Virus record (IMG/VR): IMGVR_UViG_2660238524_000011
Reading direction: 5' to 3' (one strand)
DNA: 29,277 nucleotides
Source: a virus
Lineage: Duplodnaviria; Heunggongvirae; Uroviricota; Caudoviricetes
The notes under the pieces are model-generated. The model was not told the DNA's origin. It was given only the letters and a program-made list of their open reading frames with translations, and made no database searches. The position numbers and the translations under genes are program-made. Positions 5,020 to 17,283 of this stretch are shown piece by piece. Numbering within the stretch: position 1 is the first letter of the stretch; every line of letters begins with the position of its first letter.

Positions 5020-6789
5020 TCAGTTGCCGTTAACAATGCTGATAACACTGCTGCGGGCCGGTGTGGTCAGCGTGGCCATGACTTCATCCAGTGCGGCTTC
5101 CGGTACGCCGTCCGGGTACTGTGCCGTTAACTGGCGGTAATGTTCCGGCGTCCAGGTAAGGCCGTCGGCGCTGAACTTATCGCGCAGGGCTTTCGCGGCC
5201 TCCACATGAGTCATGGGACGTTGTTCAGTGCGCGGCCCGCGTACGTCAGAGGCCTGACCACGCTTCGGCATATAGGCCGGAAGTGTGGTGTCGTCGATAT
5301 GTTTATACGGGTCAAGCCGCCCGCCGAACGGCAGCGCCTTCGCCTTGCGTGCGGCGGCTGCATCTGCGGCGTTGTCTGTACCGGTAACCAGCGCTTCGGT
5401 TTCTTTTGCCGCCATCTGTGCCGGGGTTTCCGGCAGGGCTTTGTAACTTTCGCCAAATACCGCCGCGCCTTCAGCAAAGCCAAACTCGTTCTTTCTGACC
5501 TCTTCGACCAGGAAGAACGTCTCGTGGCCGTCCTCACCGGTCAGAACCACCTGTGCCACATCGCTGCGCCATGGGTTACGGGTAATCATCAGTTTTTCAC
5601 CAACCAGTACGCCCGGTACCGTTGATACGTCAAATTCAGTGCCCCGGAACGAGACACGAAGTTTTGGCGTGACTTTGCGGAGTTCTGGTGCCGCCACAGC
5701 CAGTTCACGACATACCTCAACGGAAGGCGCTTTTTTCAGCTGCTCAGCAGTAATCTTCAGCCAGATATCCGTGCGGGTTTTACCGTGGCGGCTGTGAACA
5801 GCCGTGGCGTTAAAGTGGCTGCGCCATTTCGCGGCCAGCGCGTTGAGTTCTTCCAGACTGTGAACCGGCCGGAACTTCAGACCCGGCTCCAGCTTGCGTT
5901 CGATAATGTCACGCGCCTTTTCCACCTGTCCGGTGGCGCGGGCGTTATGCGGCTTGTGCGCTATCAGGTCGATGCCCAGTGAGCGGCACATGTTTTTCGT
6001 CATACCCGCGGTGTTTGCCGAGCCGGGGTCGAGATAGAGTATTTTCGGCACGCCGTGCAGCACGTCTGCGCCGCCACGCTCCTGCATGGCGTTGATAAGC
6101 ACAGAACACAGGTTCTCACCTGATTCCGCGCCCGTCACATACTCAACGTAAATCCAGCCGCTGGCATGGTCGGTAATCTCGTAACTCCACACGCGGTCAC
6201 TGGCGATACGGGCAAGGTTAGCGGGCTTGTTCTTGTAGAACTTCGCGCTGTCCATCACCTGCAGCCCTTTATGTCCATTGCTCAGGTAGTAAAGCGTGCA
6301 GAGTGAGGCGTCAATCTGCCAGACATGATTGGGATGCAGACTGGCCACTTCGGTATGTGGTGCAGGGGCATCCAGTTGTTCCGGGTGCAGGCCATAGTTA
6401 CGCAGAGCACGGCTGATGGCATCTTCAGACAACGGGAAAAACTCACTGGTGGTTTCATCTGTTCTGCCTGCGGTGATAAAGCCGTTAGCCCGCAGGGTTT
6501 CCACTGCATCTGCGATGGAATAGAGACGCTTACCGTTCTTGCGGGTGGCCTCACGCAGTGTGGCAGATATCAGCGCGGCTTCGTCGCGGGTCAGGGCGCT
6601 GCGCCCGGCATCGGCGCGTTTTTTGCGTTTATCAGTCACAGATACCTCCTTCAGCCTGCGCAGCAGAGTGGCGCGGGACATGCCAAGTTCAGCACAGGCA
6701 GCGTCGTATATTGCACCGCGTTTACCATGCCCCGCGTCACGTGCCGCGCGGGCGACATAAACCAGTCGTTCAGTCAGGGCAGCATTCAT
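5020..6789 (-). CDS. DDE transposase (Mu A-like, RNase H-fold integrase core)
   Basis: 589 aa with N-terminal HTH region and candidate DDE residues in HVWQIDAS, LYLDPGSANT and HNARATGQVE. Confidence 0.8.
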   Translation of the reverse strand: MNAALTERLVYVARAARDAGHGKRGAIYDAACAELGMSRATLLRRLKEVSVTDKRKKRADAGRSALTRDEAALISATLREATRKNGKRLYSIADAVETLRANGFITAGRTDETTSEFFPLSEDAISRALRNYGLHPEQLDAPAPHTEVASLHPNHVWQIDASLCTLYYLSNGHKGLQVMDSAKFYKNKPANLARIASDRVWSYEITDHASGWIYVEYVTGAESGENLCSVLINAMQERGGADVLHGVPKILYLDPGSANTAGMTKNMCRSLGIDLIAHKPHNARATGQVEKARDIIERKLEPGLKFRPVHSLEELNALAAKWRSHFNATAVHSRHGKTRTDIWLKITAEQLKKAPSVEVCRELAVAAPELRKVTPKLRVSFRGTEFDVSTVPGVLVGEKLMITRNPWRSDVAQVVLTGEDGHETFFLVEEVRKNEFGFAEGAAVFGESYKALPETPAQMAAKETEALVTGTDNAADAAAARKAKALPFGGRLDPYKHIDDTTLPAYMPKRGQASDVRGPRTEQRPMTHVEAAKALRDKFSADGLTWTPEHYRQLTAQYPDGVPEAALDEVMATLTTPARSSVISIVNGN

Positions 6790-6792
6790 TGG

Positions 6793-7707
6793 TTATGCCT
6801 CCAGCCCGTTAATCTGTGGCGTCGGCTCAGTCAGCCATGAAGGCGCTGCATTGCCTGTTGGCTCGTCCGGCAGGTCAAATGTGGAGCGCAGGCTACGCGC
6901 TGTGCTTTCCAGTTGACAGACCAGGCCTGCCATGAAGTCTCTGGGGGTATCAATCATGTTTTCAGCACAATATGCGCACAGCGTCTCAAAAGCGCTGGAC
7001 AGTCGGACGGCGATAGCAGATTCCGCCTCAACCGCTAATGCTGTTACTTCCGCCCGCAGCTTCTTAACCTCCTCATCAGGCTCAGGCGGCTGAATACGGG
7101 ATTTCTTCTCCAGTCTGGTGGAGAGTGAATCTATTTTTTCATTTTTGTCGGCGAGTACGCGCTGTTGTGCTGCGTTGGTTTCGCGCGCTTCGCGCAGGGC
7201 CTGACGCAATTCACGTACTGACATGCGATCAACGTCGTCAAGCGTCAGGCCGGCAACTGTGCCGCCGTCGGCCAATTCATCAAGTTCTTCATTATCCAGA
7301 ACCATCAGGTCGTACAGTTTGGCTTTCCCCAAAACGCTCAACGTTGAGCGTTTTGTTGGCTCATCACCTTCTCCCAAAAACTTCATACTGGCTTGCATCA
7401 TGCGGCGAGCAACTTGTGGTGCAAGTCCGAGTTCATTTTCTAAAATGTTTGTAAAATCACCGTGTGGCTCATTTTCTTTTAAGATGATCAGCCGCTTACC
7501 CGCTTCCAGCATAGATTCAGCACTCTGCGCCATATAAAAACGTGCTTCGTGAACAATGCGATCACGTTCATAAGGCAGTCCATCACCAAACTGCTGCATA
7601 ATTTCCATGCGATGCTGTGTCATAGCGTTCAAATTGACATTGATGTTATCTGACAGCGGAACCTCAACATTCAGTTCAGTGTTAACGGGTGATTTGGTGC
7701 GTCCCAT
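6793..7707 (-). CDS. conserved Mu-like early protein (304 aa, coiled-coil; copy 1)
   Basis: Immediately upstream of the A gene; paralog at 11101..12021 (about 85% identity by eye). Acidic and coiled-coil rich. Confidence 0.55.
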   Translation of the reverse strand: MGRTKSPVNTELNVEVPLSDNINVNLNAMTQHRMEIMQQFGDGLPYERDRIVHEARFYMAQSAESMLEAGKRLIILKENEPHGDFTNILENELGLAPQVARRMMQASMKFLGEGDEPTKRSTLSVLGKAKLYDLMVLDNEELDELADGGTVAGLTLDDVDRMSVRELRQALREARETNAAQQRVLADKNEKIDSLSTRLEKKSRIQPPEPDEEVKKLRAEVTALAVEAESAIAVRLSSAFETLCAYCAENMIDTPRDFMAGLVCQLESTARSLRSTFDLPDEPTGNAAPSWLTEPTPQINGLEA

Positions 7708-7717
7708 TGATTACTCC

Positions 7718-8026
7718 TTACAAACGACTACCTGAAATAACTCGTTGGTTGATTTCGTTAATACGATCCTGTGCACGCGCCATCTCGTGACTGTGAGCCA
7801 TGGCGATCTGTAGTAACTGGATTCCCGGTGCGAAACGTCCGTTCTCTAATTTCATGGCCAGTCCCTCTTCAATAAGGGTATTAAGTGCTCGATTGATATT
7901 CGCCGGGGACTCCCCCAGGGCTGATGCCAGTTCACCGTTAGAAACACCGTTCAGAGCATGACCGCGTAGAGCTTTGAGTACACGTAGGATGCGGGTCCCA
8001 GAACTGGAAATATTTACTTTACTCAT
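7718..8026 (-). CDS. winged-helix HTH DNA-binding protein (copy 1)
   Basis: Track ORF 7718..8089 trimmed to the ATG at 8026 (MSKVNISSSGTRILRVLKALRGH) by analogy with copy 2. HTH-like segment NGELASALGESPANINRALNTLIEEG. Confidence 0.5.
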   Translation of the reverse strand: MSKVNISSSGTRILRVLKALRGHALNGVSNGELASALGESPANINRALNTLIEEGLAMKLENGRFAPGIQLLQIAMAHSHEMARAQDRINEINQRVISGSRL

Positions 8027-8078
8027 GTCACATTTCCATTTTTGCAATATGTGATAACCTGTTGCATATGTGGAAAAT

Positions 8079-8267
8079 TTATGCCGCATTTGACGTGGGT
8101 TTTAATCCCAGTTTTACGGCAATTTCATGGGCTTTGCCGTAACGAGCTTTGGTCTGTCCATTGAGAACACGATAGACCTCATTGCGGCTGTAGCCGTGTT
8201 CTTCGGCCCAGCGGGTAAACGTGATACCACGCTGACGGAAGAGATTTTTAACTTGTTCGGAAGTCAT
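8079..8267 (-). CDS. Ner-like small DNA-binding regulator (first gene of early operon, copy 1)
   Basis: 62 aa with HTH segment GITFTRWAEEHGYSRNEVYRVLNG. Divergent from the repressor gene and first gene of the leftward operon. Confidence 0.55.
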   Translation of the reverse strand: MTSEQVKNLFRQRGITFTRWAEEHGYSRNEVYRVLNGQTKARYGKAHEIAVKLGLKPTSNAA

Positions 8268-8353
8268 TGTTGTCTCCTTTGTTGATGCAATGATGTTTGT
8301 TTTATATGTGATAGATTATGAGAACTATTGTTCTCATTGTCAATGAGGTTTAT
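8268..8353. promoter_or_regulatory. divergent promoter/operator region 1, with palindrome ATGAGAAC-N4-GTTCTCAT at 8318-8337
   Basis: Perfect 8-bp inverted repeat with 4-bp spacer read directly from the sequence, between divergent Ner-like and repressor genes. TTGATG at 8282-8287 is a possible -35 element. Confidence 0.5.
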
Positions 8354-8779
8354 GTGAATTTTGATTCTCTTTGCGCGTCGCGGTTCAAAGCTGAGCGTTC
8401 GCGGTTATCACTCAAGCAGGCTGAAGTAGCAGCCCTTTGTGGCGTTTCAAGAGAAATGTGGGGGAAATATGAACGAGGGGTTGCTGTTCCCGGAGGTGAG
8501 TTACTTGCAGCCTTTGCAAGAATTGGGGCCAATGTACAGTTCATTCTTACCGGGGAGTCATCAGGTATAACTTTATCACGTGATGAAATGGAGTTACTGC
8601 AGCACTACCGGCAGGCACCATTACAGGTCAAAGGTTCAGTTTTGTCGGCCTTGACTACTGGCTCCTCCAGAGAACGGGCGGAACAGGTTATTCATGGAGA
8701 TGTTCTGGGGAATGTTATCAAAGGTAACGTAACCATAGGAACAGGTGGAATAATGAACAAAAATACCAAGAGAAGATGA
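8318..8779 (+). CDS. XRE/Cro-CI-type HTH repressor (immunity repressor 1)
   Basis: HTH LSLKQAEVAALCGVSREMWGKYERG. The track ATG at 8318 lies inside the operator palindrome and lacks an RBS; in-frame GTG at 8354 preceded by GAGG is an alternative start. Stop overlaps the next start (ATGA). Confidence 0.65.
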   Translation: MRTIVLIVNEVYVNFDSLCASRFKAERSRLSLKQAEVAALCGVSREMWGKYERGVAVPGGELLAAFARIGANVQFILTGESSGITLSRDEMELLQHYRQAPLQVKGSVLSALTTGSSRERAEQVIHGDVLGNVIKGNVTIGTGGIMNKNTKRR

Positions 8780-9762
8780 GTAAAGAGAAGCAAACAGTTA
8801 ACGGGGATGTGGGTAACGTTGTCAGCGGTGATGTTACCATTCATAACTATTCTGCTGACATACTTCCTTCGGCCCAGCAACCAATTTCGTTGCTGCAAAA
8901 ACGCGATTTACACAGATTGATGGATGAATTGGTTGATCTGGGGGAAAGTAAGCGCGAGCTATGGATGACGATCCACACGAAACTTAATACCAAAACAGTT
9001 AATGAAATGACTGCGGCTGATTATCATGGTGCGGTTGAGATCCTTCAGAGATATGCACAACAGATCCAGAATATGAAGGACTGTAATCTTCTGGTCAGCA
9101 AAATAATGGCGCTTACTGACCCTGGGTATCGTCTTGACCGTGACAGATACTGTCTGAAGCATTTCGGTACAACCCATCTTAAAGGCCTAGACAAAGAGCA
9201 GTTGCAGGCTGTGTTTGGTTATTTTGATGATCTGCTGAATATTCGTGATGAGAGTAAAACTCTATCACCTCCATCGGAAAGCGGTGCAAAATCAGTCGCA
9301 ACTGTACCAACCAGAAGCCGGAAGCCTCATGTAGTAGTGTTGGGGGGAGTGTTAGTTCTTGTAGCAATATTTTTCGTGGGAATGATTGTGTTCGCTGGTA
9401 AATGGGGAAATGCCAAAGCAGTAGCTTCTACTGAAACCAGCGTTTTTAACATTAAAACCAACGATAAAATAATAGAAGATTCCATCCCCGCACTGCGCAG
9501 CATGTTTCCAGGGTTAAATAAGTACTCAGATGATTTCCATTCGGTTTCAAGCTACAAGCAAAAAACGGGCTGGCATACCCTTAAATTTACTGTATCAGCA
9601 AAGGCATCCGTCCCCGAAAATTATAGTGTTAAGGGCAAGGTTTGTTACATTAACATAAGCCCTGATGGTAGTTATGCTCGGGTTTTGACTGCTCCATGTC
9701 GTTCACTGCTACTTGATCAGCAAAGCACTCCTGACAGTAAATACCGTTTTATTCTTAAATAG
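8776..9762 (+). CDS. membrane-anchored protein of unknown function (328 aa)
   Basis: Single hydrophobic segment VVVLGGVLVLVAIFFVGMIVFAG between a roughly 165-aa N-terminal domain and a roughly 120-aa C-terminal domain. Visibly AT-rich relative to neighbours. Confidence 0.55.
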   Translation: MSKEKQTVNGDVGNVVSGDVTIHNYSADILPSAQQPISLLQKRDLHRLMDELVDLGESKRELWMTIHTKLNTKTVNEMTAADYHGAVEILQRYAQQIQNMKDCNLLVSKIMALTDPGYRLDRDRYCLKHFGTTHLKGLDKEQLQAVFGYFDDLLNIRDESKTLSPPSESGAKSVATVPTRSRKPHVVVLGGVLVLVAIFFVGMIVFAGKWGNAKAVASTETSVFNIKTNDKIIEDSIPALRSMFPGLNKYSDDFHSVSSYKQKTGWHTLKFTVSAKASVPENYSVKGKVCYINISPDGSYARVLTAPCRSLLLDQQSTPDSKYRFILK

Positions 9763-9843
9763 AAAATAACAGCTGAATTACCATGGGATCAGAAAAAAGA
9801 CAAAGGCGGCATCATGCTGCGTTCTGAAATTTTAATGTAAAAG

Positions 9844-10434
9844 GTGATGAACATGGCAGGGATTCAGGTTATCGCAGGAAGTTTTCCTAAAGGGTGGGCA
9901 AGCATGGGGTTCGGTACCATCGTGTTTGCCAAAAAACCAAAACAAGGCTTTCCTGAAAATATTGTATTAAATCTGAAAGAAGAGCTTTTATCGATTGAAC
10001 TTGCGGATAGTGAAGAGGAAAGCCGTATAGGTAAGGCGGCAGGCGCAGGTTTGCTTGGTGGATTAATCTTTGGTGGTGCAGGGTTGGTCATTGGAGGTTT
10101 GCTTGGTGCGGCGGACAAGACGAAAAAAACTATCACTTTTAAGGCAATGTTTACGGGAAATAGGTTACTTCTGGCTAAAACAGATTCAAAAACTTTTGTA
10201 AAACTTCAGTCAATTGCTGCTGATAATGCCCATAACGCATCTGTAATCAACATGAAGCAAACTAACAGGGGCGATGTTTCTTCTCGTAAACAACTAACAG
10301 AAAATCCACAGCAGCAAGACTTACCTGCGCCCGCTACAACAGTAAAAATGACTGCCAAAGATAAGTTAGAATCGGCTCTTGGGCTGGGAATCATCGTTAT
10401 AGCTGTTTGGGCAATAATACACTTCTTTTTTTAG
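9844..10434 (+). CDS. glycine-zipper membrane protein of unknown function
   Basis: Gly-rich segment GAGLLGGLIFGGAGLVIGGLLGAA and C-terminal hydrophobic helix. Likely start is the ATG at 9853, preceded by AAGG. Confidence 0.5.
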   Translation: MMNMAGIQVIAGSFPKGWASMGFGTIVFAKKPKQGFPENIVLNLKEELLSIELADSEEESRIGKAAGAGLLGGLIFGGAGLVIGGLLGAADKTKKTITFKAMFTGNRLLLAKTDSKTFVKLQSIAADNAHNASVINMKQTNRGDVSSRKQLTENPQQQDLPAPATTVKMTAKDKLESALGLGIIVIAVWAIIHFFF

Positions 10435-10471: not shown

Positions 10472-10768
10472 TTAAGGATTATCCGGGGCGTTTTCCTGTT
10501 TGCCGTACTTCGGAGACGAACAACATTCTGTTGGCTGACCGGTGAGTTTACGTAACTCCTTCATGAGCAGCTCCTGATCGTAAACTGTCATCAGTGCCGC
10601 AATGGTGGCATGCAGTGCATCGGGCAGTATCCAGGGACGCAGCAGAGTGGCGCGGGACATGCCAAGTTCAGCACAGGCAGCGTCGTATATTGCACCGCGT
10701 TTACCATGCCCCGCGTCACGTGCCGCGCGGGCTGTTTCAACCAGTTTTTCAGTCAGTGCCGGGGTCAT
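10472..10768 (-). pseudogene. chimeric in-frame fusion: transposase N-terminus (44 aa) joined to an internal fragment of the P-loop gene
   Basis: 10638-10732 is identical to 6659-6753 (A gene 5' region). 10493-10636 matches 14970-15113 with 3 mismatches in 144 bp. Product is MTPALTEKL...SRATLL followed by RPWILPDALHATIAALM. Confidence 0.55.
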
Positions 10769-10783
10769 AGCTTGTCTTCCCTG

Positions 10784-11101
10784 TTATCCGATTCTGGCGG
10801 CAATTTTTCTGGCGAGGTCGCACAGTGTTTCGCCATCGCAGGTTTTCACCACGGTATTTACCGGTTGCGGTGCAACTACCGGGCGTAATGCTGACTGATT
10901 CTGCAGACGTCTTATCTGCTGCATCAGCATCACCTCCATCGTCAGTACAAACGGGTGCGTCTCCTGTGCGGGTACGCAGATTTCACCGGAAGGGGTCACC
11001 ACGCGGAAACCCTGCACCATCTCCGGCAGCAGATTACACAGTGCGTGCCCCAGTGCCTCCGGGCTGTCCATCAGGGTATTTTGTGTGTTATTCGTATTCA
11101 T
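10784..11101 (-). CDS. hypothetical protein (105 aa), present only in control module 2
   Basis: Start abuts the stop of 11101..12021. No counterpart between the 304-aa gene and A in copy 1. Confidence 0.35.
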   Translation of the reverse strand: MNTNNTQNTLMDSPEALGHALCNLLPEMVQGFRVVTPSGEICVPAQETHPFVLTMEVMLMQQIRRLQNQSALRPVVAPQPVNTVVKTCDGETLCDLARKIAARIG

Positions 11102-12021
11102 TACTGCATATCCTCCGGTCGGTTGATTTCAGGTTCCGGTTCGGTCAGCCAGGCGGGGGCATCGTTACCCGATGGAGCGGCCTCAAGGTCAAACGTCTCA
11201 CGTAATGCATGAACACTGCGTTCAATCTGGCAGACCAGACCGGCCATGAAATCTCTGGGGGTATCGATCATGTTTTTGGTGCAGTATTCACACAGGGTCT
11301 CAAAAACACTGGACAGCCGGACGGCGATAGCCGATTCGGCCTCAACCGCTAATGCCGTCACTTCCGCCCGCAATTTTTTCAGTTCTTCGTCTGGCGGCGG
11401 AGGTTGCAGGCGCGATTTCTTCTCCAGTTTTGTGGCCAGTTCGTTGATTTTTTCGTCCTTTCCGGCAAGCACCTGTTGCTGAGCTGCGTTGGTTTCGCGC
11501 GCTTCACGCAGGGCGGCCTTCAGTTCGCGGCTGGTCATGCGATCAATATCATCAAGCGTTGCACCGGCGACGGTTCCACCATCAGCTAATGCGTCGAGTT
11601 CTTCGTCATCCAGAACCATCAGTTCATATAACTTGGTTTTTCCCAAAACGCTCAGCGCTGAGCGTTTTGGCTGTTCATCTCCATTGCCGAGAAATTTCAC
11701 GCTGGCCTGCATCATGCGACGAGCTACCTGTGGTGCTAATCCGAGGTCGTTTTCCAGAATATTTGTGAAATCACCATGCGGTTCATTTTCTTTTAAGATG
11801 ATCAGCCGCTTACCCGCTTCCAACATAGATTCAGCACTCTGCGCCATATAAAAACGTGCTTCGTGAACGATGCGTTCACGTTCATAAGGCAGTCCATCAC
11901 CAAACTGCTGCATGATCTCCATGCGATGCTGTGTCATGGCATTCAGGCTGACGTTGAGATCATCCGACAGCGGTACATCGGCGTTCAGTTCAGTGTTAAT
12001 CGGTGATTTGGTACGTCCCAT
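11101..12021 (-). CDS. conserved Mu-like early protein (306 aa; copy 2)
   Basis: Paralog of 6793..7707. Confidence 0.55.
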   Translation of the reverse strand: MGRTKSPINTELNADVPLSDDLNVSLNAMTQHRMEIMQQFGDGLPYERERIVHEARFYMAQSAESMLEAGKRLIILKENEPHGDFTNILENDLGLAPQVARRMMQASVKFLGNGDEQPKRSALSVLGKTKLYELMVLDDEELDALADGGTVAGATLDDIDRMTSRELKAALREARETNAAQQQVLAGKDEKINELATKLEKKSRLQPPPPDEELKKLRAEVTALAVEAESAIAVRLSSVFETLCEYCTKNMIDTPRDFMAGLVCQIERSVHALRETFDLEAAPSGNDAPAWLTEPEPEINRPEDMQ

Positions 12022-12031
12022 TGATTACTCC

Positions 12032-12340
12032 TTACAAACGACTACCTGAAATGACACGTTGGTTAATTTCGTTAATACGATCCTGTGCACGTGCCATCTC
12101 GTTACTGTGGGCCATGGCGATCTGCAGTAACTGGATGCCCGGTGCAAAACGTCCGTTCTCCAGTTTCAGAGCCAGCCCTTCTTCAATGAGGGTGTTGAGT
12201 GCCCGGTTGATGTTTGCCGGTGACTCGTGCAGTGCTGTCGCCAGTTCACCGTTAGAAATACCGTTCAGGGCATGACCGCGCAGCGCTTTGAGTACCCGGA
12301 GGATGCGACTGCCGGAGCTTGAAACATTCGTCTTACTCAT
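12032..12340 (-). CDS. winged-helix HTH DNA-binding protein (copy 2)
   Basis: Paralog of 7718..8026. Start at the ATG at 12340 (MSK...) with AGAGG RBS 7 nt upstream. Confidence 0.5.
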   Translation of the reverse strand: MSKTNVSSSGSRILRVLKALRGHALNGISNGELATALHESPANINRALNTLIEEGLALKLENGRFAPGIQLLQIAMAHSNEMARAQDRINEINQRVISGSRL

Positions 12341-12392
12341 CTGCATACCTCTTTTGCGATATGTGATAACCTTTTACAAAGACTCAAAATAT

Positions 12393-12581
12393 TTAGGCCG
12401 CCTGAGCTGTTGATTTCAGTCCCAACTTCACGGCGATTTCATGGGATTTACCGTAACGGGCTTTGGTCTGCCCGTTGAGAACGCGGTATACCTCATTGCG
12501 GTTGTAGCCGTTTTCTTCTGCCCAGCGGGTGAAAGTGATCCCGCGCTGGCGGAAGAGAGCTTTGACTTGTTCTGCAGTCAT
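12393..12581 (-). CDS. Ner-like small DNA-binding regulator (copy 2)
   Basis: 62 aa, about 87% identical to 8079..8267. Confidence 0.55.
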   Translation of the reverse strand: MTAEQVKALFRQRGITFTRWAEENGYNRNEVYRVLNGQTKARYGKSHEIAVKLGLKSTAQAA

Positions 12582-12674
12582 CGTTGTCTCCTTTGTTGAT
12601 GCAATGATGTTTGCCTTATATGTGTTAGATTATTGCTCATAATTATGAGCATATCAAGATAGAGATTCACTTTT
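12582..12674. promoter_or_regulatory. divergent promoter/operator region 2, with 18-bp palindrome TGCTCATAATTATGAGCA at 12634-12651
   Basis: Perfect palindrome read from the sequence; a third half-site TATGAGCA overlaps the repressor 2 start codon at 12674-12681. Confidence 0.5.
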
Positions 12675-13031
12675 ATGAGCAAAGATATAGGAGAGCGCGT
12701 TATTTCTGTGAGGAAGAAAGCAGGGTTGAACCAGAGAGAATTTGCAGCTCGTTTAGGTATTTCTAATGGTGGTATCAGTCAGATTGAAAATGGAAAGGCG
12801 ATGCCTGGAGGGGAGTTTCTGTTAAAGATGCATCAAGAGTTTAATGTTGATGTAAATTGGTTGCTCACTGGAATGAGCACAGATGGTATGACTAGAAACC
12901 AGAATCAAATTTCCCCAGAAAAACAAAAACTAATAGATACTTTTGACGACATGACACCAGACCAACAACGCTCATTTCTTGAGATTGGGCGATTCTATAC
13001 TCAGCCAAAACCAGGAAAAATCGCAGGCTGA
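12675..13031 (+). CDS. XRE-type HTH repressor (immunity repressor 2)
   Basis: HTH LNQREFAARLGISNGGISQIENG. Unrelated to repressor 1 outside the HTH core. Confidence 0.65.
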   Translation: MSKDIGERVISVRKKAGLNQREFAARLGISNGGISQIENGKAMPGGEFLLKMHQEFNVDVNWLLTGMSTDGMTRNQNQISPEKQKLIDTFDDMTPDQQRSFLEIGRFYTQPKPGKIAG

Positions 13032-13116
13032 TACTGACCCGGACACAAAGGACAGGTGGTTGATCTGGATGCTTTCAGAAAACATCGCCAGTGACATAGT
13101 GGAAGTTGTTTGGTTT

Positions 13117-13148
13117 ACCGGAAAGCATTGTGCTTTCCGGTTTTGTTT
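13117..13148 (+). terminator. putative intrinsic terminator
   Basis: 10-bp stem ACCGGAAAGC/GCTTTCCGGT with 5-nt loop, followed by TTTTGTTT. Downstream of repressor 2 and abutting the Dam stop codon. Confidence 0.55.
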
Positions 13149-13910
13149 CAGAAGTTGCAGATTAGCAGTTCACGGCGCGGCGTGGGTTTACCCGCCAGAC
13201 TGTAGTTGATATTCACTGTCTGTATGTTCAGTCCAGTGAACACCTCGCGCATCTGCGGGATGTCGTTCACCGAAATTATCATTTTTCCTCTGATGCACCG
13301 GGCCAGCTCTGCCAGCCGCGAGTAGTTCCCTTCAGGAAAATCCACACCATAGCCTTCCGTACCCAGGTACGGTGGGTCGCAGTAGAACAGCGTGTGCGGA
13401 CGATCATAACGCTCAATGCACTGTTGCCAGTCCATGTGTTCTATGACTGTTCTGGAAAGCCGCAGGTGTGCCGCTGACAGTTCTTCTTCAATACGTAGCA
13501 GGTTGAAGCGTGGCGGGGATGTGGTGGAGGTACCGAAGCTGTGCTCTGCCACCTTGCCGCCAAACGCCTGCTTCTGAAGGTAGTAGAACCGTGCCGCACG
13601 CTGGATATCCGTCAGTGTTTCTTCCGGGGTGATCTGCAGCCATTTGTAGATCTGACGGCTGACCAGCGCCCATTTGAACTGGCGGACAAATTCTTCCAGG
13701 TGATGCTTTACCACCCGGTACAGATTCACCAGTTCACCGTTGATATCATTGATGACTTCGATCTTGCCGGGTGTCTTAAGAAAATAGAGCGCTGCTGCCC
13801 CACAAAACGGCTCCACATAACATTCATGCGCCGGAAACAGCGGCAGAATGTGTTTTGCAAGGCGGCGTTTGCCACCAATCCACGGCACGATGGGTAATGT
13901 CTGCATTTTC
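13148..13910 (-). CDS. dam: DNA adenine methyltransferase (Dam-like, D12-class N6-MTase)
   Basis: DPPY catalytic motif (FYCDPPYLG) and N-terminal SAM-binding region (IVPWIGGKRR ... VEPFCGAAA). Track ORF trimmed to the ATG at 13910 (MKMQTLPIVPW). Confidence 0.75.
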
Positions 13911-14102
13911 ATAATCTGCAAGCCTTTTACAATTATTAAAAAATATGGCAGTCTGGTCAGGTCTCGCGAGACTGACTGAACCTTGGTCGGCTCACAGCGC
14001 ATTCCTGTGGGGCGATGACCAGCCCGGCTTTCGGGTGCCGGGCTGGTCGTTCTTTCATGATGCGGCAGGGATGGCGGGATTTCTGTTAATGTGGTTTAGG
14101 GA

Positions 14103-14318
14103 TTATCCGGGGCGATTTTCTGACCTTATCCGGTCCAGGGCATAAGTAATACCTTCTGCAAAAACAGAAGTATCAAACTGCTTTTGTATTCCCTGAAAAT
14201 GAAAAGCGGCACGACAGACACTCAGTTCTCCGCGGTATAACCGGATAATATCTTCCAGAACATTGTTCACTGCTTCAGCACGGCGCTGATGTTCTGTTAA
14301 CGTTAATCGGGGATTCAT
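14103..14318 (-). CDS. hypothetical protein (71 aa)
   Basis: Strong AAGGAG RBS 7 nt upstream of the ATG at 14318. Confidence 0.45.
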   Translation of the reverse strand: MNPRLTLTEHQRRAEAVNNVLEDIIRLYRGELSVCRAAFHFQGIQKQFDTSVFAEGITYALDRIRSENRPG

Positions 14319-14721
14319 GATGCACTCCTTAAATGATGATTTTTATGTACTCACCGGCAAAATATTCTGCCGATTACTGAACACGCATCCGGCACCTCAG
14401 GTTTTGATTTATTCTGGTTTTTTCGATATCCCGGACCAGGTTGATCACGACCAGAAAAAGTGCCGGTGTTTTATTGATACGCTGATATGGCTTCGGGATA
14501 ACAGCTATATTCGTTACTCTCAGTTGCTGGCTGTGGGAGCGGCTGATGTCGTCCTCACGGAAAAAACGCTCTGTCTGCTCAATGCCATGCCGACCTTTCT
14601 GCAGCCCCGGCCCGTACCATTTAAAGAGTCACTTCTGGATGCAGTAAAAACCGGTGAAAATGCAGTCATCGCTGAATGCGTATCCCGGATTATGCGTTAC
14701 GTGTTTAATGAACGTAAGTGA
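14317..14721 (+). CDS. hypothetical protein (134 aa)
   Basis: ORF fills the 378-nt gap between minus-strand genes. Its start codon overlaps the divergent start of 14103..14318 (CATGATG); 3' end converges on and overlaps the P-loop gene. Weak GGGGA RBS. Confidence 0.35.
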   Translation: MMHSLNDDFYVLTGKIFCRLLNTHPAPQVLIYSGFFDIPDQVDHDQKKCRCFIDTLIWLRDNSYIRYSQLLAVGAADVVLTEKTLCLLNAMPTFLQPRPVPFKESLLDAVKTGENAVIAECVSRIMRYVFNERK

Positions 14722-15425
14722 GGTTTATCCGCTGTCTGCATAATCCCGATAGCCAGTGCGAGGGGAAGTAATTCCGGGGAAACTCTTTCAAACAGCGATG
14801 CCCATTCTCCTCTCGCCATCACTCTGTCCAGCCCGCCCTCCAGTTGCATTTCAGCAATCTTCCTGATTTCCCGGAACAACGCCGCTTTGATCTCTTCATG
14901 CTCAGCTTTATTTTCCGGTGTCAGAAGGTATTCGTCGAAGAACCGGGGAGGCTGGTTAATCGGGATGTGTTCCTGTTTGCCGTACTTCGGGGACGAACAA
15001 CATTCTGTTGACTGACCAGTGAGTTTACGTAACTCCTTCATGAGCAGCTCCTGATCGTAAACTGTCATCAGTGCCGCAATGGTGGCATGCAGTGCATCGG
15101 GCAGTATCCAGGGTTGCCGGCCCGTGGGGCATATAACATCCAGCAGCTCATTCGTCCGACAGATACGCTCCTCGCCGTATGACAACAGGCCCTGTCCCGT
15201 GTATTCCTCCAGCCTGATCACTGTGCCAGCCCGTGGTTTCTGCCATGTGCTCAGATCATCCCCACTCATACGGCGCTCACCGTCCACGTCTGCGGCGTCG
15301 ACAATGACGCTGTTTCCGAATTCCTGTTTCACCACTTCCTCTATTCGCGCCAGTACGTAACTTTTACCGCTGCCCACAGGACCGGACACGGTGACAGTGA
15401 TGACCGGATTCAGTGTCTGCGTCAT
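14697..15425 (-). CDS. P-loop NTPase-like protein of unknown function (242 aa)
   Basis: N-terminal Walker A-like SGPVGSGKSY. GAGGAG RBS 8 nt upstream of ATG at 15425. Confidence 0.5.
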   Translation of the reverse strand: MTQTLNPVITVTVSGPVGSGKSYVLARIEEVVKQEFGNSVIVDAADVDGERRMSGDDLSTWQKPRAGTVIRLEEYTGQGLLSYGEERICRTNELLDVICPTGRQPWILPDALHATIAALMTVYDQELLMKELRKLTGQSTECCSSPKYGKQEHIPINQPPRFFDEYLLTPENKAEHEEIKAALFREIRKIAEMQLEGGLDRVMARGEWASLFERVSPELLPLALAIGIMQTADKPHLRSLNT

Positions 15426-15555
15426 ATCGTATTCTCCTCTGTGAATAATTCATCGTTTATCCTGCACATCCCGTATCCCCGGCTCTCTTAACGCGCTTTA
15501 AAATCCTTCGCGCCCTGTATTTGTGATGCTGTCTCCACCAGATAAGGAGACACAC

Positions 15556-15906
15556 ATGAAAAACCTGAAAAAATTCATTCCCCCTGTTAAAAAACCTCGC
15601 CTCAGCGGCTGGCTGCTGACCTCAGTGCTGTTGCTGGGCACCATCGCTCTGGTCTCACCACAGCAGCTGCCTGTTGTGATCTACAAGCTGGCACTCATCA
15701 CGCTGGCAGCAGTGCTGGGTTACTGGCTTGACCGTTCGCTCTTCCCCAAAGCCCGTCCCGGTCAGTACCTGAAACATGACGACAGGCTGATGGCTGAAGG
15801 GCGTTTCCCGGTACAGACCGGCCTTCACCTGGTGTTTTCTGCTGCGTTAATCCGCCGTGCACTGATTGTTGCAGCGGTCTGCCTGGCTGTTGCGATGGGG
15901 CTTTAA
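15556..15906 (+). CDS. holin-like membrane protein (three predicted TM segments)
   Basis: AAGGAGA RBS before the ATG at 15556 (MKNLKK...). Located immediately upstream of the endolysin. Confidence 0.45.
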   Translation: MKNLKKFIPPVKKPRLSGWLLTSVLLLGTIALVSPQQLPVVIYKLALITLAAVLGYWLDRSLFPKARPGQYLKHDDRLMAEGRFPVQTGLHLVFSAALIRRALIVAAVCLAVAMGL

Positions 15907-15908
15907 TC

Positions 15909-16649
15909 ATGAACTGGCCGCAGATCACCTGGATTGTATGCATGTCCCTGAAACTGGCTTTCGAAGCCTTTCGGGTCTTCATCAGAACCGAACGCCTGTC
16001 AGTCCGCGCCGGGACCTTTCTGGTTCATATGGCATGGGTATTCTTTGTCGCAATGTTGCTCTGGTGTGGCGGCTTTTTTAGCCAGGCATGCGCAGCACAA
16101 CCTCCGCAGGCTGCGCTGCAGTATCGCGATGATGTGATCCGTAATGCCCGGCTTGAATGGGGACTGTCTGCGCCGGTGGCCGATTTCGCCGCGCAACTGC
16201 ATCAGGAAAGCGGCTGGCGACCTGATGCGATCTCGCCGGCTGGCGCTCAGGGACTGGCGCAGTTCATGCCTGCCACTGCCGACTGGATAAGCCAGTTGAT
16301 ACCGATGCTGAGCAGTCGTGAGCCGTTTAATCCGGCATGGGCTATCCGGGCGCTGGTCAGCTATGACCGCTGGCTGTGGCAGCGTGTCAGCGCCGCCAGT
16401 GACTGCGAGCGTATGGCCATGACACTGTCGGGCTATAACGGTGGTCTGGGCTGGGTACAACGGGACAGGCGGCTTGCATCACAGAAAGGTCTGGACAGCA
16501 CCCGCTGGTTCGGACATGTCGCCACGGTGAATGCCGGACGCAATGCGGCCAGCTGGCGGGAGAACCGCCATTATCCGCAGCGCATCCTGCGCGAACTGGC
16601 ACCGCGATATCTCACATGGGGAGGCAGCAGTTGTGTGGCATCTGGTTAA
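15909..16649 (+). CDS. endolysin, lytic transglycosylase (SLT domain) with N-terminal hydrophobic segment
   Basis: SLT-type motif LHQESGWRPDAISPAGAQGLAQFMP. N-terminal hydrophobic stretch suggests a signal-anchor or SAR type; an internal start at MAWVFFVAM is possible. Confidence 0.75.
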   Translation: MNWPQITWIVCMSLKLAFEAFRVFIRTERLSVRAGTFLVHMAWVFFVAMLLWCGGFFSQACAAQPPQAALQYRDDVIRNARLEWGLSAPVADFAAQLHQESGWRPDAISPAGAQGLAQFMPATADWISQLIPMLSSREPFNPAWAIRALVSYDRWLWQRVSAASDCERMAMTLSGYNGGLGWVQRDRRLASQKGLDSTRWFGHVATVNAGRNAASWRENRHYPQRILRELAPRYLTWGGSSCVASG

Positions 16650-17283
16650 AAAGCTGCCGTGGCGCGGCATTCTGCTGGCCATTCTTATCAATGCCTTTCT
16701 GGTCGGCCTGTATGCCATGGGATACAGAAGTGGTCATGACTCTGCAAAGCGTGACGGTGATACCGCGCTCAGTCAGTTGCAGTCAGCATTTGACGCGTAC
16801 AAAACGGAGCAGGCAACGCTTGAGAATGCTGCGCTGCGGGCCTGGGCCAGACGGTATCAGGAGCAGGTGGCCGCCGGGCAGCGGGCTGAAGCCGGTTATC
16901 TTGAGCAGATTGCTCAACTGGAGAGCCGGAACAAACAACTACAGGGGCAAATTAACGATGTCACACAGCGCTGGATTGATGAAAAAGGTAAGAGCCATCC
17001 CATTGAGTGCGTGTTTACTCGCGGTTTCGTGCGCCAGTACAACGCCGCACTCGGATATGACAACGCATCCGTCGACACCGGTCATTCAGACTCAGTTGCC
17101 GCCGCTGGCACCCGCTCTGGCACAGCGACCGGGCAACCTGAAACCACTGACACCCGGTTACGCGATTCGGGTGTCTCCCAGCGTGACGTTCTCGCCAACA
17201 TCATCGACAACGCATGGCAATGTCGTCGCTGGCGGAACCAGATAAACGCGTTGCTGGATGAACGGGAAGGATTACAGAAATGA
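16633..17283 (+). CDS. Rz-like i-spanin
   Basis: GTG at 16633 preceded by GGAGG. N-terminal TM (ILLAILINAFLVGLY) followed by coiled-coil. The track start at 16531 would overlap most of the endolysin 3' end. Confidence 0.55.
   Translation: MWHLVKKLPWRGILLAILINAFLVGLYAMGYRSGHDSAKRDGDTALSQLQSAFDAYKTEQATLENAALRAWARRYQEQVAAGQRAEAGYLEQIAQLESRNKQLQGQINDVTQRWIDEKGKSHPIECVFTRGFVRQYNAALGYDNASVDTGHSDSVAAAGTRSGTATGQPETTDTRLRDSGVSQRDVLANIIDNAWQCRRWRNQINALLDEREGLQK
16979..17245 (+). CDS. Rz1-like o-spanin lipoprotein, embedded in the +1 frame of Rz
   Basis: MKKVRAIPLSACLLAVSC lipoprotein-type signal with lipobox Cys, followed by a Pro-rich short product, wholly inside the Rz gene. Confidence 0.55.
   Translation: MKKVRAIPLSACLLAVSCASTTPHSDMTTHPSTPVIQTQLPPLAPALAQRPGNLKPLTPGYAIRVSPSVTFSPTSSTTHGNVVAGGTR

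Follow-up and report, generated by a model that had tools for sequence, protein, structure and literature searches.

Background

The Pe/Pc switch of phage P2 and the pR/pL switch of phage 186 are found in temperate phages. They have divergent genes with face-to-face crossing promoters, such that the 5' ends of the transcripts overlap and transcription is head-on. In IS10 (RNA-IN/RNA-OUT) and the type I system symE/SymR, opposed transcripts pair across a ribosome-binding site (RBS) and a start codon. The subject here is a locus of three genes at positions 14103-15425 of a Caudoviricetes record in IMG/VR, IMGVR_UViG_2660238524_000011. The whole stretch that was analysed, 29,277 nucleotides (nt) long, is called the window. 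Two of the genes, which encode proteins of 71 and 134 amino acids (aa), are divergent and overlap at their start codons; together they are called the pair. The third encodes a 242-aa protein with a Walker A motif.

The pair resembles the P2 and 186 switches in being carried by temperate phages and in having, we infer, head-on divergent units with overlapping 5' ends. The promoters of P2 and 186 are intergenic and their products are lysogenic and lytic repressors, whereas the pair has no intergenic DNA at all and its overlap includes both RBSs as well as both start codons. The proteins of the pair are also unrelated to C/Cox or CI/Apl, and its locus is accessory. In IS10 and symE/SymR one partner is a non-coding RNA, whereas here both strands encode conserved proteins.

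The excludon of Listeria (Wurtzel et al. 2012, PMC3377988) consists of long antisense RNAs over whole genes or operons and is defined by transcript maps. The likeness is that the transcript of one gene of the pair would be antisense to its divergent neighbour, so that one would exclude the other. The difference is that the overlap in the pair is deduced from geometry only, and that the cassette is a 0.6-kb one with two genes.

A second type of the pair is found in P2-like prophages. The gpQ-gpA (cos-proximal) locus of these phages has been described as a defence hotspot, which contains old and tin in P2 (PMC9122126). The P2-type pair is like old/tin (PMC9122126, PMC13586616) and other gpQ-gpA cargo in lying in the same hotspot, beside known or candidate defence genes. 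Unlike that cargo, it recurs beside many different cargoes, on either side of them, and no PADLOC model matched it.

The 242-aa protein shares with P-loop nucleoside triphosphatases (NTPases) a strand, the GxxxxGK[ST] motif and a helix segment. It differs in that its unit has about 75 residues and three predicted strands, with no recognisable Walker B or ABC signature, with GKN in some members, and with shuffled unannotated modules attached.

The best overall explanation, held with roughly even confidence, is an island of two units. Unit 1 would be an excludon-like, antisense-coupled mobile pair, and Unit 2 a mosaic gene. The pair itself is a conserved uncharacterised cassette of unusual architecture, carried in E. 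coli by P2-like and Mu-like prophages.

Three genes

The locus consists of the following features.

14103..14318, minus strand: gene of the 71-aa small protein (phrog_4490), with a Serratia homologue in the same position
14317..14721, plus strand: gene of the 134-aa winged-helix-fold protein (phrog_2266), with the winged helix at residues 4-87 followed by two C-terminal helices
14697..15425, minus strand: 242-aa mosaic gene (phrog_3787), in both RefSeq and PHROG
14697..14721, both strands: tail-to-tail overlap of the 134-aa and 242-aa genes, 25 nt

All three open reading frames (ORFs) are real genes, because of their PHROG matches, their annotation and their spread. The PHROG matches are full-length, with E-values of 5e-170 for the 242-aa protein (phrog_3787), 2.6e-44 for the 134-aa protein (phrog_2266) and 7e-53 for the 71-aa protein (phrog_4490); all are families of unknown function. 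RefSeq PGAP annotates the three with identical boundaries (WP_000194951, WP_000972294, WP_001069611). In a search for near-identical DNA the 1.5-kb region was present in 584 of 5426 complete E. coli genomes, and every time it was chromosomal. An earlier sequence-only reading of this DNA had proposed three ORFs with a CATG start overlap, and a check of the ORF coordinates bore this out.

The opposite-strand 134-aa frame is the one that could most easily be doubted. GenBank entry PQ738613, of Escherichia phage PhiKM, does not contain the gene and leaves a blank gap of 378 nt (L001 21320-21697, which equals window 14319-14696). It could be argued from this gap that the frame is a spurious antisense one, and that the real genes are a minus-strand operon of the 242-aa, 71-aa and Dam methylase genes only. 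This is extremely unlikely. Besides the phrog_2266 match and the PGAP annotation, the protein has 85 homologue clusters, exclusively in Enterobacterales, in genera that include Escherichia, Klebsiella, Salmonella, Citrobacter, Enterobacter, Kosakonia, Serratia and Cronobacter. In P2-type relatives both genes of the pair are under purifying selection: over 32-34 distinct sequences, the large gene has a ratio of non-synonymous to synonymous polymorphism (pN/pS) of 0.13, and the small gene one of 0.21. Between the window and E. coli LH50-c there are too few substitutions for pN/pS to be useful. AlphaFold gives the 134-aa protein a confident model (pLDDT 80). Judged by this conservation, the spurious-frame reading can be called already refuted, and the 134-aa ORF that the sequence-only reading had placed on the opposite strand is a real gene. 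That reading had listed a lack of conservation of this frame as part of what would speak against it.

In BcepMu-type loci, the two translation-start regions of the pair form weaker structures than shuffled sequence does (z +1.3 to +1.7). Weak structure of this kind is expected for working start sites. A hairpin of Shine-Dalgarno (SD) and anti-SD sequence as an auto-inhibitor was rejected for the same reason.

The 134-aa protein has a winged-helix fold. A Foldseek search with its model returned nothing under E 0.05 in PDB or BFVD. UniRef names the Serratia homologue DUF2513, which Pfam scans did not confirm: that model gave no match to the window and Serratia proteins at E<=5, and none to 46 members of the family at E<=1.

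The head-to-head junction

Both genes of the pair start within one palindrome, and each SD motif lies in the coding sequence of the partner.

14316..14319, both strands: palindrome CATG that holds both divergent start codons, which overlap by 2 nt
14325..14330, minus strand: SD motif AAGGAG of the 71-aa gene, 6 nt before its ATG and within codons 3-5 of the 134-aa gene
14309..14313, plus strand: SD-like motif GGGGA of the 134-aa gene, within codons 2-4 of the 71-aa gene

A further in-frame ATG of the 134-aa gene follows at 14320. A start there would remove the overlap, and the genes would still abut.

All 55 loci with a gene for a 134-aa homologue, in two unrelated phage types, show the CATG head-to-head geometry. 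The loci surveyed were 43 IMG/VR contigs, 3 species-representative genomes, 4 Serratia BcepMu-like contigs, E. coli LH50-c and the window. They are not all independent, and hold 34 distinct small and 32 distinct large proteins. Protein identity across them goes down to about 30%, and DNA identity among the P2-type loci lies between 54 and 99.9% (median 75%).

In the P2-type alignment, the SD motifs of both strands are among the few invariant runs of columns at the junction. The equivalent of AAGGAG is GAGG or GGAGG and is kept in P2-type and Serratia loci; that of GGGGA is AGGGA or GGAA, likewise kept in relatives. The Serratia junction, CATGATG, is identical to that of the window. The P2-like phages ST147-VIM1phi7.1, Midge and FSL SP-004 encode distant homologues of the 134-aa protein, at 28-33% identity. 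In these three, an opposite-strand gene of 63-64 aa starts 2 nt inside the start codon of the homologue (GCATGTC). The BcepMu-type small proteins have 71-73 aa, with 31-35% identity between E. coli and Serratia.

These are thus divergent genes of which the 5' transcript ends must overlap, as the starts overlap and each SD lies within the coding sequence of the other gene. Antisense regulation had been suggested from this overlap. The part that stands is the conserved geometry, which forces the mRNAs to be antisense to each other; that this regulates the two genes is what we infer from it.

Proposed mechanism

Since each RBS lies in the first codons of the partner, the two mRNAs should be mutually antisense and complementary across both translation-start regions. 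With no intergenic DNA, each promoter would have to lie inside or beyond the partner gene, and from such promoters the transcription units would run head-on. Transcriptional interference, together with occlusion of the RBSs by antisense RNA, could then make expression mutually exclusive or tightly control the ratio of the products, as in an excludon-like toggle. The 71-aa and 134-aa products would probably act together, as a partner or regulator plus an effector.

On the minus strand, there would probably be one transcript that runs from the 242-aa gene through the 71-aa gene, and possibly into Dam. This transcript would be antisense through the whole winged-helix gene. It is plausible because no terminator-like site was found on the minus strand between the 242-aa and 71-aa genes. 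Between the 134-aa and 242-aa genes no such site was found on either strand.

The favoured role is that of a prophage accessory module for exclusion, defence or addiction, since P2-like prophages carry this cassette in the midst of anti-phage systems.

The Walker-A gene is a separate unit

The 242-aa gene has two recognisable parts.

15198..15425, minus strand: N-terminal Walker-A mini-domain, codons 1-76, with the order strand, P-loop, helix, strand, strand; the sole widely conserved part
14742..14897, minus strand: C-terminal domain, codons 177-228, with 46% identity over 54 aa to a stand-alone 89-aa Serratia protein

The Walker A motif, GPVGSGKS, is at residues 15-22, of which G15, G20 and K21 do not vary among 12 diverse members of the family. 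Some family members have GKN in place of GK[ST]. A search of 1.84 billion representatives gave 60 relatives. Apart from close E. coli copies, only residues 1-76 are common to them, as the N-terminus of proteins of 74-364 aa with differing remainders. Residues 105-135 reappear at the C-termini of other members. A 182-aa variant that is frequent in E. coli has lost residues ~52-124, including the conserved W61, P64 and strand 3. It thus lacks half of the Walker-A domain and keeps the C-terminal domain.

The sequence-only reading had described a P-loop protein. The motif is indeed present, but conservation is limited to some 75 residues and no NTPase family reaches threshold. Among the Pfam NTPase families none was over threshold for the 242-aa protein and ten relatives, the best being AAA_30, with 16.5 bits where the cut-off is 27. 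Sub-threshold matches to Zeta_toxin (E 0.15), KAP and Csx3-AAA cover the P-loop segment only, and profile matches to solved structures (ABC, PilT and kinase P-loops) likewise cover only the Walker-A segment. In the 12 diverse members no invariant acidic residue follows a hydrophobic strand, as a Walker B would have, and the 242-aa sequence has no LSGGQ signature. The AlphaFold model, from a shallow alignment, is unusable at pLDDT 44; three strands are predicted in it with low confidence. A complete alpha/beta NTPase core with a Walker B, above a family threshold, was therefore not found in this protein. Nothing in these results supports the name 'ABC transporter ATPase', which RefSeq gives to short Walker-A forms. 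The reading had also held that a known phage replication or packaging component would speak against its idea; no such family was matched.

The Walker-A gene and the pair each occur without the other, so the locus is two separable units and not one cassette. Unit 1 is the pair at 14103-14721, and Unit 2 is the mosaic gene at 14697-15425. Several loci have the Walker-A unit and lack the pair: E. coli C237-04 has it as a 158-aa gene next to the holin gene, three further BcepMu-like prophages carry it, and in more distant phages it lies between lysis genes and HNH/terminase genes. Conversely, the P2-like loci and Serratia have the pair without the Walker-A unit. The idea that the three genes are one cassette built on a P-loop ATPase is not supported by this.

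In Serratia BcepMu-like prophages, the slot between the Dam and holin genes holds genes of 73 aa (minus), 139 aa (plus) and 89 aa (minus), with a tail overlap of 37 nt. Because the 89-aa gene matches residues 177-228, the conserved BcepMu-type trio would thus be the pair plus the C-terminal domain, and the Walker-A unit an E. coli add-on. Pattern scans for the C-terminal domain found none in the genome contigs, and in IMG/VR the already known Serratia contig and no other. The Walker-A unit of 75 residues might represent a new minimal nucleotide-binding domain, fused to interchangeable effector modules. On present comparisons, the P-loop gene stands apart as a mosaic, and it is not demonstrably an ATPase.

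The pair in P2-like prophages

In P2-like prophages the pair lies between the portal gene Q and the replication gene A, which is in the defence hotspot. Among the cargo that flanks it are a reverse transcriptase of the RT_VI type, HEC-06/Orf5, an AriA-like ATPase, SoFic/PDC-S04, PDC-M48B and NsnA. Defence-type cargo is on either side of the pair and in either orientation (loci L003, L005, L015, L038, L039 and L048). One version of the P2-type cassette was found by a near-identity DNA search in 94 more complete E. coli genomes among the 5426. In the P2-like loci there is also a stem-loop after the winged-helix gene, and the pair is a recurring landmark within the hotspot.

PADLOC-DB 2.0 gave no significant match for the three window proteins or for their Serratia and P2-type counterparts, and no known toxin or antitoxin family was matched in Pfam, NCBIfam or PADLOC. 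In type II toxin-antitoxin systems the genes are co-directional and in one operon. This layout was ruled out for the pair, the genes of which are divergent with overlapping starts. A compact toxin-antitoxin or defence cassette had been proposed; the proteins and layout argue against it, and what speaks for it is the position of the P2-like copies in the hotspot. From sequence comparison, the locus is in no known toxin-antitoxin, defence, replication or packaging family.

A literature search (accessions, PHROG ids, DUF2513, PhiKM, overlapping divergent starts) returned nothing on these genes. The two hotspot papers (PMC9122126, PMC13586616) describe the hotspot, and a term search of them found no mention of the pair.

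Every copy of the pair is annotated 'hypothetical', and it is absent from defence catalogues, despite its presence in 584 plus 94 of 5426 E. coli genomes and the fact that its P2-like copies sit in the best-studied phage defence hotspot. Two annotations are corrected here, which are the missing 134-aa gene in a GenBank phage record and the 'ABC transporter ATPase' name. The interlocked starts would be a compact natural test case of head-on transcription and antisense pairing that set the ratio of two proteins.

Setting of the locus

The window is a BcepMu-like (Mu-like) transposable prophage of E. coli. Positions 13000-16700 are 100% identical to PhiKM (Bcepmuvirus). The features around the locus are as follows.

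13148..13912/14002, minus strand: D12-class Dam methylase gene, left of the three genes
14017..14058, plus strand: conserved terminator hairpin with a 12-bp stem and then a T-run, at the left edge of the variable slot
15426..15555, between divergent genes: control region of the 242-aa and holin genes, with the SD motif GAGGAG of the 242-aa gene at 15439->15434
15556: ATG of the holin gene (PF13272) per RefSeq annotation, in the lysis cassette to the right of the locus

The lysis cassette has the holin gene first and then an SLT transglycosylase. Backbone homology with Klebsiella phage KP12 and with Serratia ends at 14055-14058 and restarts at 15489 or 15589. In KP12 (L002 4956-5522) the Dam-holin slot holds one plus-strand DUF2441 gene of 188 aa in the place of the three genes. 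Because KP12 has a different gene there, the slot is variable or exchangeable. The locus is therefore an accessory ('moron') island, in a variable slot with the Dam-methylase backbone on one side and the lysis cassette on the other. For this slot of the window the evidence covers variability alone; hotspot status belongs to the P2-like loci.

Weighing the explanations

Several points weigh against the excludon-like pair. Scans for sigma-70 patterns and terminators, and a position-weight scan of 37 aligned P2-type loci, gave weak candidate promoters only, the positions of which are not conserved between lineages. No conserved operator-like repeat was found at the junction. Geometry is thus the single ground on which a toggle is suggested, and the conserved overlap could be a frozen accident, in that interlocked starts and RBSs would make any indel harm both genes. 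Comparison with the models of PADLOC, Pfam and NCBIfam gave no match for either protein of the pair, and the link to defence is only guilt by association. The winged-helix family is acidic, with a median net charge of -6 and a pI (isoelectric point) of 4.8, unlike the neutral 134-aa protein of the window (pI 6.8). Because the family is acidic, DNA binding is not safe to assume, and it may bind protein rather than DNA. Finally, small proteins of the BcepMu and P2 types have no detectable homology (hhalign probability 0.25%). Therefore the large protein and the geometry appear to be what is conserved, and the small partner would have diverged past recognition or been swapped.

A stronger form of the same explanation is that the pair is a self-contained antisense-locked switch, of a new family for prophage exclusion, defence or addiction, with the CATG overlap as its control device. 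Only one of the two mRNAs would then be made and translated at a time. Independently of this, the Walker-A unit would be a new minimal nucleotide-binding domain. This is possible, if doubtful.

Compaction alone could also have produced the locus. Unrelated small accessory genes would then be packed tightly, with proteins that work independently, for example in host takeover or anti-defence, and with no regulatory role for CATG. Phage genomes are compact, the unrecognisable small partner differs between lineages, an acidic winged-helix protein would suit a protein-binding inhibitor, and no convincing promoters or operators were found. Yet divergent start-codon overlaps are the rarest class among bacterial gene overlaps, and this one persists in all 55 loci and two phage families despite the change of partner. 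The geometry makes the 5' regions complementary whatever its origin. Compaction alone is on balance unlikely. If it were right, the locus would be a warning against inferring a functional unit from gene overlaps.

The sequence-only reading took the three genes as a single toxin-antitoxin or defence cassette, with the P-loop protein as an ATPase sensor or motor. The tight packing with overlaps at both ends agrees with this, as do the Walker A motif, its weak sub-threshold matches, and the C-terminal domain that accompanies the pair in E. coli and Serratia. The idea is nevertheless quite unlikely, as the Walker-A domain and the pair are each found without the other, the 182-aa variant has lost W61, P64 and strand 3, some family members have GKN, neither an NTPase family at its threshold nor PADLOC was matched, and the genes are not co-directional as in type II operons. 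The three overlapping genes are here two independent modules. It is also conceivable, though very unlikely, that the winged-helix protein and its partner belong to core phage regulation, and control Dam expression or the switch to lysis and late genes. The cassette does have Dam on one side and the holin and late genes on the other, the 71-aa gene immediately precedes Dam on their common strand and no minus-strand terminator separates the two, and winged-helix folds are common in regulators. But the pair is missing from related BcepMu-like phages that do have Dam and the same lysis cassette, the P2-like copies are far from any Dam or holin gene and have their hairpin after the winged-helix gene, and the family is acidic. 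The two-unit island with an excludon-like pair is the favoured explanation.

Other features of the window

Between the Dam start and the variable slot, 13940-14058 on the plus strand is a conserved structured RNA element with three hairpins. Its last hairpin is the one with the 12-bp stem (14017-14048) and the T-run, and the end of the element is the exact end of backbone homology. There are compensatory changes across six phages, and the consensus fold has -49.5 kcal/mol on the plus strand versus -28.8 on the minus strand. The element could represent a small RNA, or else the 3' terminus of a transcript from the plus strand. A promoter-like sequence, TTTTCA-16-TACAAT, is at 13906-13933, with a proper -10 in E. 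coli only. Rfam gave zero matches over 13000-16000.

The 71-aa gene is flanked by direct repeats, 14081-14104 and 14292-14315, that match at 18 of 24 positions. The sequence TTCATGATGC is also found on both flanks, at 14054 and 14314. The 18-of-24 match is present in E. coli LH50-c as well, and Serratia has no equivalent spacer. Recombination may have left these repeats as a scar, or they may be due to chance.

The window is a hybrid of two BcepMu-like prophages, with early-region genes duplicated at 82% identity (6659-8319 versus 10638-12633). At 10472-10768, a chimeric ORF of 98 aa joins a copy of the Walker-A gene to the 5' end of a transposase, with the junction near 10637. Of its parts, 10484-10636 is a 96% copy of Walker-A codons ~105-155, and 10638-10759 is a 93% copy of the transposase 5' end. 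None of the 5426 complete E. coli genomes spans the junction, which leaves a rare recombinant or a chimera of the assembly as its source.

Beside one immunity region, 8318-10434 on the plus strand is a low-GC block (0.42-0.44) of three genes. They encode a helix-turn-helix protein of 153 aa, a 328-aa protein and a glycine-rich 196-aa protein with a hydrophobic C-terminal tail; the latter two have no match in Pfam or PADLOC. In E. coli C237-04 this block adjoins the 158-aa Walker-A gene, and it looks like another accessory cargo.

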